Below, piece after piece: positions 8,134 to 11,562 of a stretch of DNA of 64,000 bases. Position numbers and translations under genes: made by a program. The notes under the pieces are model-generated. The model was not told the origin of the DNA. It was given only the letters and a program-made list of their open reading frames with translations, and did no database searches. This DNA comes from an uncultured Planctomycetota bacterium. GTDB lineage: Bacteria > Planctomycetota > Planctomycetia > Gemmatales > Gemmataceae. The first letter of the stretch is position 1. Every line of letters starts with the position of its first letter. Location: positions 64,001-128,000 of the forward strand of contig CAWKHF010000002.1 of the NCBI GenBank assembly GCA_963849325.1, read 5' to 3'.

Positions 8134-8913
8134 TCACCCCGGATGGGCCTGCAAAAGGGCCAGGACTTCGTCGTGCAGTTTGCCGTTGCTGATGAGCACG
8201 TCGGGGCTGTGGATGTTCGGCTGGCCGCTCCAGTCGCTGAAGCGACCGCCAGCCTCCTCGACGAGCGGCTGGATGGCGGCCACGTCCCAGGCATGTACGC
8301 CATGCTCGATCATCACTTCGCCCGAACCCTGGGCCACCAGAACGTGCCCGTAGTAATCGCCGAAGCCGCGCTGCCGCTCCGTGCGCCGGGTCAATTCCAG
8401 AAACGCTTCCTGACGGCCCGCCTTGAGGAACCACGACAGGCTGGAATAAAAGAGCATCGACCGTGACAGATCGGCCACGTCCGAGACGCGGATGCGGCCA
8501 TCGTTGCGATACGCTCCATCGCCGCGGAGTGCCCGGTAGGTATGTCCCAGGGCCGGCACGTCGGCGACGCCGACGATCACCTCCTCGCGGTATTCCAGGC
8601 CGACGAGGGTGGCCCACAGAGGAATGCCGCGGACGAAGTTGCGCGTGCCGTCGATGGGATCGATGATCCAGCGGAAGCCGGATGAGCCGGGCGTGTCGCC
8701 GAACTCTTCACCGAGGAAGCCGTCGCCCGGGAAGGCGCCGAGCAGCGTCTGCCGCAGCAGTTGCTCGGCCTCGCGGTCGGCCACGGTGACGGGACTGCAA
8801 TCGGCCTTCCATTCGACCTGGAACGAGCCGTCGAAATAGCGCAGGGCCAGCTGCCCGGCCTTGTGAGCCGCCTCGACGGCCAACTCGTAGCGGCTTCGCC
8901 ATTCCGGGTTCAC
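8134..8913 (-). CDS. hisN: Histidinol-phosphatase, inositol monophosphatase family
   Basis: KAD.SPVTVADREAE, GEEFG, WIIDPIDGT and RGFGDYY...WDVAA motifs. Confidence 0.8.
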   Translation of the reverse strand: MNPEWRSRYELAVEAAHKAGQLALRYFDGSFQVEWKADCSPVTVADREAEQLLRQTLLGAFPGDGFLGEEFGDTPGSSGFRWIIDPIDGTRNFVRGIPLWATLVGLEYREEVIVGVADVPALGHTYRALRGDGAYRNDGRIRVSDVADLSRSMLFYSSLSWFLKAGRQEAFLELTRRTERQRGFGDYYGHVLVAQGSGEVMIEHGVHAWDVAAIQPLVEEAGGRFSDWSGQPNIHSPDVLISNGKLHDEVLALLQAHPG

Positions 8914-8976
8914 GACATCTCCTTACGAATGCCCTAGACCGCAGCGTTTGTTTTACGGCAAGGCGGGGTGTCTGTC

Positions 8977-9186
8977 TTCCGAAAGCCGCTTGCGGCTTAG
9001 CGTAGCGAGAACGCTAAGTGTCTGTCCCGTAAGCCCCTCTCCTCCTGTACTCAGGGGGAGAGGGGTTGGGGTGAGGGGGTGCGGTTTCCCAGGGCTTGCC
9101 GCCCCCTCACCCCCAACCCCTCTCCCCCGAGTACGGGGGAGAGGGGCTTACCGGACAGACGCTAAGCCGCAAGCAGCTTTCGGAAC
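8977..9186. mobile_element. Nested palindromic element: 145-bp MITE-like unit (9018-9162) flanked by TAA duplications inside another hairpin repeat
   Basis: Inner terminal inverted repeats gtgtctgtcc..gtaagcccctctcc / ggagaggggcttac..ggacagacgc; TAA at 9015-9017 and 9163-9165; removing the unit restores the outer hairpin. Confidence 0.75.
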
Positions 9187-9250
9187 AGGCTCTGAAGTTG
9201 GAGATGGCCCCGGATTTGCACTATGATCCTCGGATCAAAGGAGGTGCAAC

Positions 9251-9559
9251 ATGGCCGATGACAGGATACGCGAACAGACCATCGGGGAGACGCAGACGGG
9301 CGACCAGCCGGAGAACGTCCCACTGGAAGAACCCCTCCCCAGCACGAACGACCCGGGCGGAGCGCGATCCAAGGGCTACTCCGCCGAGCAGCGGCCGAAG
9401 GCGGATGTCAAGAAGGAAGGGCCGCTGCCCCTGGTGCCCGGTCACGATACCGGGTCCGAGGTCCAGCAGCCCGAACGTGACGGCAAGGTGCAACCCACAG
9501 GGCGAAGTGAACCGGGCGCGTACACCCCCAATGACCGCTTGATGGGTTCCGATCGGTGA
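9251..9559 (+). CDS. Small hydrophilic hypothetical protein
   Basis: Strong RBS (aaggaggt) upstream of the ATG; GC-rich third positions; 102 aa, acidic and Pro/Gly-rich. Confidence 0.7.
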   Translation: MADDRIREQTIGETQTGDQPENVPLEEPLPSTNDPGGARSKGYSAEQRPKADVKKEGPLPLVPGHDTGSEVQQPERDGKVQPTGRSEPGAYTPNDRLMGSDR

Positions 9560-9614
9560 TAGGACTAAGATAAAAAAGATCTTTTTTGTCTGAATAATTA
9601 TACATGACTGCGGA

Positions 9615-9655
9615 GAAAAGAAAAAAGGCGATCCTCGGGGGAGCGAGGATCGCCT
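9615..9655 (-). terminator. Intrinsic terminator
   Basis: Minus strand reads AGGCGATCCTCG-CTCCCC-CGAGGATCGCCT followed by TTTTTCTTTTC. Confidence 0.85.
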
Positions 9656-9889
9656 CTGCACGGGGGCCACAGGCCGGAACACGGAGGGGATGGAATGGCG
9701 AGCGGGGGAGGCCGCCATTCGTCGGGCATCTGCCCGGCGTCCGTCCGCGCATCTGGGGGGACAGACACAAGGACGAAGGGCAAACCGGGTTGGCCCTATC
9801 CGGACGCCGCATTCGCAAGCCAACGGACGAACTCTCGCGGGGGAGCGAAAGTCACTCGGCCGCCTCGCGCCGTGCGTCCGGACAACACC
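9620..9889 (-). ncRNA. Candidate sigma54-dependent sRNA with repeated UCCCCC hairpin loops
   Basis: Bounded by a sigma54 promoter and a terminator; four hairpins with UCCCCC loops; no convincing ORF. Confidence 0.65.
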
Positions 9890-9899
9890 TTTCCCTGAA

Positions 9900-9916
9900 A
9901 GCAACTCGAATGCCAA
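9900..9916 (-). promoter_or_regulatory. Sigma54 (-24/-12) promoter
   Basis: Minus strand TTGGCATTCGAGTTGCT, with exact GG-N10-GC spacing. Confidence 0.75.
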
Positions 9917-10071
9917 TGCCGCGGGCCGTCGGGCACAAAATAGAGACGAACGACCCAACTTTCAAACATGGTGACAGTTGCGGCAGCACGTTCGGTACGG
10001 CGGTGGGATGGAAGGCGGATGAGCCACCGGGCGGCTTGTAAATGGTGCCGGCGTCCTTGTAAGTCCTGCCC

Positions 10072-11562
10072 TCAATTCGACGTGGCCGAGTTGGGGTCTG
10101 TCCGGTCTTTTTCCTGGTTTTCGCCCGACTTGTTTTTCTTGCCCACAACGCGCTTGAGTATCCAGGCGATGCCGCCCGCCGCGACGAGGGCGGCGGCACC
10201 GACGGATAGCATGATGGCGTCGCGCCGGCTCAGCCGAGCCAGGGGAGTCGTTGTCCTTGGAGCGACGGCCACCATCTCGACGTCGGCTGTCGGGGCGGGG
10301 GCCGATGGGGCGACGGAGGTCGCCATCGGGACCGAACGGGCGGCACTCGGGGCCGCGACGGGTGCGGCCACCGGCACCGAAGGGACATCCGGCCGGAACT
10401 CGACGGTTGGCGTCTCCTCGCCGCTGGTGGAGTCCAGCCAATCGAGGTAGGCGCGCATCTGCGGACTGGCTTCGCGGGGGGCCGGCTCCGACCCGGCGGC
10501 GAGGAAGACCTGCAACGCCTGGGCGGCGCGTTCGGGAGTCGGATAACGCTGGGCGGGATCCTTGGCCATCATCCAGTTGACGATGTGCTGCAAGCCGTCG
10601 GGCACCGCCGGATTGAATTTCTTCAGGGCCGGCACCGGCTCGCTGGCGTGACGCATCATCTTGCGGACCATATTCGACTCGGGGTAAGGAGGTTGGCCGG
10701 CCAGGGCGTGGAAGAGCGTGCAGCCCAGGCTGTAGATGTCGGCGCGAATGTCGGCGGCGTGCGCGTCGCGGGCCTGCTCGGGAGCCATGTAATCCGGCGT
10801 GCCGAGGATGGTGCCGTCGGCGGTGAGGTTGGCGTTCGCGCCGGCGTCGGCCTCGTCGAAGAGGGCGCGGCCCATGCCGATGTCGAGAATTTTCACCGTC
10901 GCGTTCAGGGTGGAACCGGCTAGTCCGTCATCGGCACCGGGCAACAGCATGAGATTGCTGGGATTGAGGTCGCGGTGGACCATGCCGTCCTCGTGCAGGT
11001 ACTCCAGGCCGAGCAGCGCCTGATAGAGGAGACGTACCGCCTCGGCCGGCGGCAGTTTGCCGCGCCGCTTGAGCACGTCTTCCAGCGTTTCCCCATCCAG
11101 ATACTCCATGACAAGGTAATGCAGGCCGTTATCCTCGGCGATCTGGAAGGTACGGACTATATGGGGGTGTTTGAGACGCAGGGAGAGACGCCCCTCGCGC
11201 TGGAAGCGGGCGAAAGCGTTGGCGTCCTTGGCCTTGGACGGCGGCAGTACCTTGATGGCCACGATCGGACCGAGGCGATGGATGGCCTTGTAGACACCGG
11301 CCATGCGACCGACGCCGATACGCTCGAGCAATTTGTACTCGTTGAGGAAAAAGCGATCGGCATGGCCGCGCCGCAACATGCCGGCCTGGTACTCCGTGAC
11401 ATACTGGCCACTAACGAGCCATTGACAGAACTTGGCGGAGTCGGACGCCGCCGCGCCGGCCTCGCCGAGCCAGCGCTGGCGCAGTCTACGGACCTCGTCG
11501 GCGGTGACGAGCTTGCTGCGGGCCAGTAGATTGCAGAGTGTTTCGACGGATGGGATATCCAT
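10072..11562 (-). CDS. Ser/Thr protein kinase with C-terminal TM anchor
   Basis: VAIK, HRDLNPSN, DIG and GTPDYMAPEQ motifs; Pro/Ala linker; SRRD followed by a hydrophobic helix. Confidence 0.93.
   Translation of the reverse strand: MDIPSVETLCNLLARSKLVTADEVRRLRQRWLGEAGAAASDSAKFCQWLVSGQYVTEYQAGMLRRGHADRFFLNEYKLLERIGVGRMAGVYKAIHRLGPIVAIKVLPPSKAKDANAFARFQREGRLSLRLKHPHIVRTFQIAEDNGLHYLVMEYLDGETLEDVLKRRGKLPPAEAVRLLYQALLGLEYLHEDGMVHRDLNPSNLMLLPGADDGLAGSTLNATVKILDIGMGRALFDEADAGANANLTADGTILGTPDYMAPEQARDAHAADIRADIYSLGCTLFHALAGQPPYPESNMVRKMMRHASEPVPALKKFNPAVPDGLQHIVNWMMAKDPAQRYPTPERAAQALQVFLAAGSEPAPREASPQMRAYLDWLDSTSGEETPTVEFRPDVPSVPVAAPVAAPSAARSVPMATSVAPSAPAPTADVEMVAVAPRTTTPLARLSRRDAIMLSVGAAALVAAGGIAWILKRVVGKKNKSGENQEKDRTDPNSATSN

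Follow-up and report, generated by a model that had tools for sequence, protein, structure and literature searches.

A candidate sigma-54-dependent small RNA with repeated C-rich hairpin loops in Gemmataceae

The question addressed here is whether the minus strand at 9616-9916 of the window (the whole 64,000-nucleotide (nt) stretch analysed, C2:64001-128000, from an 8.16-Mb genome with 65% G+C, 14 contigs and 84.7% completeness) encodes a regulatory small RNA (sRNA), and by what mechanism such an RNA would act. An initial annotation, made from the letters of the window, had described a sigma-54 promoter, four hairpins with C-rich loops and a terminator, and had read them as a multi-seed translational regulator of Planctomycetes. 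The observation itself was confirmed, and the interpretation as a whole is partly supported. The locus is very probably a real, conserved non-coding RNA gene; comparison among relatives shows the predicted gene with its boundaries, structure, promoter type and an upstream element.

The sigma-54-type -24/-12 promoter was present where it had been placed, at 9916-9900 on the minus strand (TTGGCATTCGAGTTGCT), and its box at 9915-9900, TGGCAT-TCGAG-TTGCT, has the exact GG-N10-GC spacing. The predicted sRNA of ~275 nt extends on the same strand from an inferred +1 at 9889 to 9616, as delimited by a conserved block, the fold and the score of a covariance model, R1 (253.5 bits for the window sRNA). 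In the minimum free energy (MFE) fold, the RNA forms a long imperfect stem, hairpin 1 (9797-9884), with the apical loop UCCCCC (9844-9839), followed by hairpin 2 (9740-9777) with the loop UCCCCC (9761-9756), a small hairpin (9723-9736) with the loop AGAU (9731-9728), hairpin 3 (9693-9720) with the loop CUCCCCC (9710-9704), and an intrinsic terminator (9616-9657), whose 14-bp stem (9657-9624) carries the loop CUCCCC (9643-9638) and is trailed by T6-C-T4 at 9626-9616. All four UCCCCC-type hairpins first proposed were thereby recovered, except that hairpin 2 is narrower than described (9777-9740, not 9729-9784). Congener alignment marks 9657-9690 as a mostly unpaired, nearly invariant core (UCCCCUCCGUGUUCCGGCCUGUGGCCCCCGUGCA); inside it, UCCCCUCC (9690-9683) and a fifth C5 tract (9666-9662) have no pairing in the MFE fold, in line with the earlier description.

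The unconstrained MFE of 9889-9615 (275 nt, minus) was -140.1 kcal/mol (z = -6.34), compared with a mean of -109.9 ± 4.8 for dinucleotide shuffles (n = 200), none of which was as stable. The terminator scan by itself was without significance, giving 1 site against a shuffle mean of 1.6. The strict box TGGCAY-N5-TTGCW was matched 40 times in the 8.16-Mb genome (~10 expected by composition), TCCCCC occurred 2,770 times on both strands, about one quarter of the ~10,000 expected by base composition, and clusters of at least four TCCCCC inside 280 nt were found at 13 places in the genome; apart from the locus and one sibling, most of these are copies of a palindromic repeat. Because strict boxes, TCCCCC and TCCCCC clusters are all few, a chance origin of the locus is unlikely. 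A sigma-70-like TTGAAA-17-TATTTT at 9965-9937 was considered as a promoter and rejected, the surrounding sequence being unconserved among congeners.

Full-length units were detected in 8 of 10 congeneric genomes, with one match each at 70-75% identity; the two genomes without the unit are 74% and 64% complete. Neither BLAST nor the covariance model returned a further full-length copy in the window's own genome, and the element is single or low copy, not a high-copy repeat. Conserved columns run from the TGGCA box to the T-tract, and the flanks (30 nt on each side) are unalignable, which bears out the view of a stand-alone minus-strand gene bounded by promoter and terminator. The -24/-12 box is retained in 9/9 aligned congeneric sequences, with two variants (CGGCAC and TGGTAC), and a 30-nt, mostly unpaired part of the core, CUCCGUGUUCCGG..UGGC.CCCGUGCA (9686-9657), is almost invariant, with most columns identical in 9/9.

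A test for covarying stems with invariant loops had been proposed, and the stems do covary while the loops do not vary. R1 comprises 278 positions and 61 pairs, and pairs were counted over nine distinct realigned rows; the alignment was fitted to R1 itself, which biases the counts towards structure. Of all R1 pair cells, 93.6% were paired, and double-sided changes occurred in 15/61 pairs. The covariation score was 0.270, against 0.197 ± 0.011 in shuffles, and 0/500 shuffles reached the observed score, paired percentage or double-change counts; controls in which partners were slid by 1-3 columns gave 34-48% pairing and 4-8 pairs with double changes. The double changes are sited in apical hairpin 1, hairpins 2 and 3 and the terminator: the outer and apical helices of hairpin 1 are 98.9% and 91.5% paired, with 1 and 2 double-changed pairs, respectively, and the corresponding counts are 4/13 for hairpin 2, 5/12 for hairpin 3 and 3/13 for the terminator.

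Seven exact matches to the core all fell in Gemmataceae / Planctomycetota metagenome-assembled genomes, which agrees with the Planctomycetes assignment made from the letters. At E ≤ 0.01, R1 gave matches in 23 of 151 Gemmataceae genomes scanned; 11 of them, from other genera, had full-length matches scoring 21.9-68.5 bits. In these other-genus units the stem sequences are unrelated, but hairpins with UCCCCC loops persist, the terminator has that loop as well, and the first hairpin is closely preceded by a TGGCAY-N5-(T/G/A/C)(T/G)GC box in 11/11, so that the promoter conservation anticipated by the initial annotation holds within and beyond the genus. A strict promoter-plus-loops pattern (box-N40-70-TCCCCC-N25-55-TCCCCC), run on 267 genomes of the order, yielded 20 matches in 17 genomes (Gemmataceae 17/251, sister family 0/15) and 1 match for its reversed control; it was matched in 0/400 genomes from the remainder of Planctomycetota. 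The strict-pattern counts are lower bounds, because the window's own genus, where the second gap is longer, was missed, and the present distribution scans as a whole are lower bounds for the family. Among the genomes searched, the sRNA family appears only in Gemmataceae.

For description of the family, 34 units were folded unconstrained; 5/39 unique units were left out, L062, L065 and L076 for having no C4 loops and being repeat- or chance-like, and L071 and L075 for a doubtful promoter pick. C4+ runs were present in 125/164 hairpin loops of the 34 RNAs; the modal loop was UCCCCC (49), usually closed by C-G. Each RNA contains 4-9 C4+ runs, 173/210 of which are unpaired (39% of all bases are), and 28/34 RNAs lack any G4+ run. 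Several genomes carry paralogues (G000, G004, G008, G019, G113 and G132).

A sibling sRNA lies outside the window in its own genome (C2 ~344,093-344,520, plus strand). It has TTACAT-N15-TTACAA, then CGGCACGGGCCTTGCT 127 nt on, a UCCCCCUCCCUCC linker and three UCCCCC-loop hairpins, the terminator among them. A second unit is also present in congeners G008 and G004 (L102 and L103).

The upstream element emerged from a k-mer count over the 260 nt upstream of the boxes, which returned TTACAA. In the window, two copies form a candidate upstream activator sequence (UAS) on the minus strand, a distal one at 10057-10062 and a proximal one at 10036-10041, ~125 nt upstream of the TGGCA box; they are spaced 21 nt start-to-start and lie directly past the stop of the upstream kinase gene. 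At least one TTACAA within 250 nt upstream was found at 32/34 family loci, compared with 1.3% of random windows of the own genome. Tandem TTACAA at 20-22 nt start-to-start (about two helical turns) occurred at 17/34 loci, with the proximal copy 104-140 nt before the box, and such tandems were absent from 20,000 random genome windows. The own genome contains five TTACAA tandems, two of which precede the two C-loop sRNAs, with the box 147 and 127 nt further on. The box logo over the 34 loci reads T31 GG C33 A Y N5 T29 T33 GC T26, where GG, A and GC were imposed by the search.

A search blind to the RNA was performed with TTACAA-N13-16-TTACAA-N98-128-TGGCA on the 151 Gemmataceae genomes and gave 39 matches in 35 genomes, compared with 4 in reversed controls. 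Thirty of these loci were fetched, of which 6 were already known and 24 were new; a complete box was present in 17/24 new loci. In 15 of those 17, the RNA that follows it has five or more C4+ runs and two or more hairpin loops with C4, and a terminator could be recognised in 12 of the 15. The 7 new loci without a full box had none of the C-run, C-loop or terminator features. Since searching for the upstream repeat recovers box and C-loop RNA, repeat, box and RNA travel together. As read from the sequence, this combination is how a sigma-54 gene under activator control is laid out. The genome encodes rpoN (Sigma54_DBD, 196.6 bits, at C5:304980) and enhancer-binding ATPases (19 Sigma54_activat matches, ~16 genes), and transcription of the sRNA is likely to depend on sigma-54.

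At E ≤ 10 over the range 8500-11000, cmscan found no family of Rfam 15 (6C, sX13, Cuckoo/CcsR, RsaE, Qrr, CrcZ and 4,221 others) reaching its gathering score at the locus. The sole match inside 9615-9916 was 6C, at 21.2 bits (gathering 47, E = 8.3), on the terminator (9623-9673); the sole sub-threshold sX13 match (32.9 bits, gathering 50) lay off the locus, on the palindromic repeat (9010-9152). Searches of full-text literature, exclusive of subscription journals and supplements, turned up neither such an RNA nor any Planctomycetota sRNA of this kind. The initial annotation had known of no described equivalent and had proposed a check against Rfam; within these sources no equivalent emerged.

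Several known systems share part of the design. Like Qrr of Vibrio, which is transcribed by sigma-54 plus LuxO and is ~100 nt long, Hfq-dependent and equipped with a linear seed, the window sRNA has a dedicated sigma-54 promoter, upstream activator sites (candidates here) and sibling copies, but there is no sequence or structure match to Qrr in the Rfam scan. CrcZ is likewise sigma-54-driven (CbrB) with an upstream activator site, whereas 6C, to our knowledge, is not sigma-54 dependent. CrcZ/CrcY and CsrB/RsmZ resemble the present RNA in repeating a short motif in unpaired spots of a multi-hairpin RNA; they differ in the motif and its partner, A-rich with Hfq/Crc for CrcZ and GGA with CsrA for CsrB, against UCCCCC here, in a genome in which Hfq was not found. 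CcsR/Cuckoo of Alphaproteobacteria, where CcsR occurs as tandem repeats, and RsaE/RoxS of Firmicutes pair C-rich loops or regions with G-rich ribosome-binding regions; unlike these, the locus gives no match to their Rfam models, and promoters and sizes differ.

The closest parallels in design are 6C and sX13. In M. tuberculosis 6C/B11, C-rich loops are reported to pair with G-rich mRNA sites of many targets, independently of Hfq and ProQ (PMC6486639). For sX13, the report gives three stable stems with apical C-rich loops, repression of mRNAs with G-rich motifs near their starts, such motifs at ~5% of genes, and Hfq independence (PMC3771888). The window sRNA is like 6C (RF01066, Actinobacteria) in being a stand-alone sRNA of a high-G+C host with C-run hairpin loops, and unlike it in being ~three times longer, with 4-9 C-runs instead of two C-rich loops, and in having a sigma-54 promoter and the TTACAA repeat; there is no homology. 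It shares C-rich apical loops with sX13 (RF02232, Xanthomonadaceae), and GGGGA precedes 3.7% of starts here, against G-rich motifs at ~5% of genes reported for sX13; phylum and promoter type differ, and the window sRNA has more loops.

The reading that we favour is that 9889-9616 (minus) is a stand-alone, trans-acting sRNA of ~275 nt that would represent a new family. RNA polymerase with sigma-54 would transcribe it from TGGCAT-N5-TTGCT (9915-9900). A gene elsewhere would supply the enhancer-binding activator, which would bind the tandem TTACAA at 10062-10036, so that the sRNA would be made only when this activator was switched on, and transcription would end at the hairpin and T-tract (9657-9616). 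The scaffold of covarying stems would keep four to nine C4-C6 runs single-stranded, in C[UCCCCC]G hexaloops and linkers, G-runs capable of masking them being almost absent. The C-runs would kiss G-rich mRNA stretches (GGGGGA/CGGGGGAG), often at or near ribosome-binding sites, and pairing would affect how the mRNAs of a small regulon are translated or how stable they are; Hfq would probably not be needed, as is the case for 6C and sX13. Comparison does not extend to expression, activator, mode of pairing or targets, which we infer. Base pairing between the C-loops and G-rich sites in mRNAs is given a rough probability of 0.55 as the mechanism; it is favoured because the design matches 6C and sX13 (stems displaying C-runs, no G-runs) and because Hfq had no match in the genome, which is 84.7% complete.

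Ribosome-binding sites of the genome bear on how such pairing would select its targets. The 3′ end of the 16S rRNA has the canonical sequence, and (A)GGAG(G) is the Shine-Dalgarno motif found to be enriched: among 1,125 well-defined starts, GGAG precedes 28% (background 11%), GGGGA 3.7% (1.0%) and GGGGG 2.2% (1.2%), the enrichment of GGGGA being also expected of a Shine-Dalgarno variant. As the loops are C5, not CCUCC, and GGGGA and GGGGG are minor, the C5 loops would select a small subset of genes and not mimic the anti-Shine-Dalgarno sequence. Mimicry by CCUCC was tried as a candidate and rejected, its enrichment being weak (28/34 RNAs vs 22.6 ± 2.7 in shuffles). Targets sought as exact-complement k-mers were also rejected, because most were chance matches of GC-rich sequence or came from a repeat matching a stem that is not conserved. 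This second short repeat, ATGGCGAGCGGGGGGCGTCAGCCCCCTGTTGCTTCC-like (e.g., C8:229,534, C5:320,511 and C12:1,220,334), complements the non-conserved 3′ arm of hairpin 3; the match was judged incidental.

A number of observations weigh against pairing or against the proposed control. The C5 loops mismatch the canonical GGAGG that dominates the genome's ribosome-binding sites. Duplex energies of six C-rich segments against -35 to +12 of the 1,125 genes showed no excess over controls; in this crude test, duplexes of -20 kcal/mol or stronger were found at 64 sites in start regions, compared with 65 for reversed segments and 87 in gene interiors. Clean GGGGGAG sites before start codons are few and precede unrelated genes (seven, encoding GT87, xylose-isomerase-like, GNAT, epimerase, DapB, a Cpn60 fragment and one product without a Pfam domain). 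The many-fold uniform hexaloop is also a hallmark of protein-titrating RNAs. As to control, an activator gene was found within 1.5 kb of 0/76 loci, and the putative TTACAA-binding factor may not be an enhancer-binding protein. Finally, many family loci were retrieved by searches requiring TCCCCC, which makes C-run counts, such as those of at least 2 C-runs, partly circular; the circularity does not touch the placement of runs in loops, the scarcity of G-runs, the UAS or the test by upstream-repeat search.

Two explanations would deny the locus a trans-acting role altogether. It could be a cis element: a leader or attenuator at the 5′ end of a gene further downstream, or else the 3′ untranslated region of the Ser/Thr kinase gene (11562-10072). 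The kinase gene, on the same strand, ends ~155 nt before the sigma-54 box, and an inositol-monophosphatase gene lies ~700 nt downstream in the same orientation. Neither kinase nor phosphatase was found beside the copies in 8 congeners, however, and in other genera the typical copy is flanked by a divergent uronate-isomerase-like amidohydrolase gene and by an ABC-2 permease gene in convergent orientation (7/7 loci checked), so that no co-oriented gene follows, which is evidence against a leader. With its own promoter, a strong terminator and conservation that halts at the T-tract, the locus is very improbable as a cis element. A dispersed repeat, a mobile relic or a small-protein gene, with no regulator at all, is suggested by a C/G-rich palindromic repeat family in the genome, one copy of which lies 450 nt off (9013-9167), and by the high G+C, which leaves long stop-free frames on both strands. 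Set against this are the low copy number (a single full-length copy plus a diverged sibling in the 8.16 Mb), the covarying stems, and the promoter and UAS kept across genera; a coding function is further opposed by alignment gaps (34/49 gap runs are 1 or 2 nt) and by the lack of a start-to-stop frame common to nine congeners. The chance that the locus is no regulator is slight in the extreme.

A more serious alternative concerns the partner of the loops. The C[UCCCCC]G hexaloops, in four to nine copies, and the linear C-runs could titrate a protein that binds C-rich strands, as CsrB/RsmZ or CrcZ do for theirs; sigma-54-dependent induction of the sRNA might then free the mRNAs of the titrated protein. 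A repeated uniform hexaloop fits such a sponge equally well in form. One short motif is repeated in loops and linkers at a copy number of 4-9 on stems unrelated across genera, individual genomes carry several paralogues, promoter and UAS form a dedicated module, predicted mRNA sites are not in excess, and CrcZ is likewise sigma-54 dependent. Yet no candidate C-binding protein was identified or linked to the locus (CsrA and ProQ were not searched for), and the flanking uronate-isomerase-like and ABC-2 permease genes include no RNA-binding protein. The characterised sRNAs with C-rich apical loops that were compared, 6C and sX13, are reported to base-pair, and the 30-nt invariant linear core of the window's genus resembles a long seed more than a repeated protein site. 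Titration is thus held as a tentative second reading, and pairing with G-rich mRNA sites is retained as the preferred one.

The palindromic repeat is an observation in its own right. The repetitive extragenic palindrome-like copy at 9013-9167 of the window, 450 nt from the sRNA, has the arms CCCCTCTCCCCC / GGGGGAGAGGGG and GGGGTGAGGGGG / CCCCCTCACCCC; the palindrome's 12-mer occurs 267 times in the genome, and the palindrome draws sub-threshold miRNA and sX13 Rfam matches. Its G-rich arm and the loop motif of the sRNA, CUCCCCCG, are complementary. It is conceivable, although improbable, that the C-loops (CUCCCCCG) are aimed at the G-rich arms (CGGGGGAGAGGGG) of this dispersed palindrome and not at ordinary ribosome-binding sites; if so, a module of activator, sigma-54 and sRNA would steer many transcripts together via embedded repeats.

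In the window, the locus is preceded on the same strand by the Ser/Thr kinase gene and followed by an AT-rich spacer, the palindromic repeat and the inositol-monophosphatase gene. The uronate-isomerase-like neighbour of the other genera scored 37.7 bits with Pfam UxaC, 78.6 bits with NCBIfam NF002794 (cut-off 387) and 529 bits against PDB 4i6v ('Amidohydrolase 2'). Its gene was present at 31/76 loci, some of which are the same place fetched twice, and this frequency may point to a connection with the metabolism of carbon or sugar acids. A G4+ run between the UAS and the start codon of this gene was inconsistent, being found in 4/9 fully printed intergenic regions. In the own genome (C9 ~96,000-96,760), the uronate-isomerase-like gene has a copy of the palindrome directly upstream instead.

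Convergent with the sRNA, a hydrophilic open reading frame (ORF) of 102 amino acids (aa) lies at 9251-9559 on the plus strand; an overlapping 148-aa frame has no Pfam match. A soil-run contig matches 9400-9558 at ~94% and ends at the stop codon of this ORF. No RNA run was listed as containing 9400-10100. The same soil run, which carries a metatranscriptomic label and was flagged 'probably DNA', was considered as evidence of expression of the sRNA: one contig of 242 nt, with a depth of 66, aligns to 9834-9878 at <90% and goes on as a relative's version of hairpin 1, and other contigs have depths of 2.4-2.6. These contigs were not counted as expression, because they come from one study, as contigs only, and from a library of doubtful type.

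Other sigma-54 boxes were recorded in the genome. At C7 72,381 (minus), the box TGGCATGGCAGTTGCT is followed by a structured stretch of ~290 nt ending in CCUCCCCUCCCCC, with the terminator loop UCCCCCC but neither further C-loops nor a TTACAA tandem; 2.5 kb from this box lies an enhancer-binding-protein gene (C7:69,399-69,902). A strict box at C6 275,607 (minus), TGGCACCGGCTTTGCA, stands ~120 nt before an ORF starting MCGIIGYVG, which we take to be glmS-like. Within the window, strict boxes on the minus strand at 17231-17216, ~90 nt before a GTG-start ORF (213-aa frame listed), and at 30635-30620, 176 nt before a 648-aa ORF starting MAEEKIIG, have no TTACAA upstream.

The element is most likely a new sRNA family that works like a known kind. 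Distinctive is the set of predicted sigma-54 control, upstream repeat, up to nine C-runs, sibling copies and apparent restriction to one bacterial family. With units tallied in ~40 genomes and ~25 genera, it offers a complete, testable module composed of TTACAA repeat, sigma-54 promoter, multi-loop C-rich RNA and terminator. It would extend the design of C-rich loops and G-rich mRNAs to a new phylum and couple it to sigma-54 control, and the pair of promoter and UAS could lead to the cognate activator and its signal.

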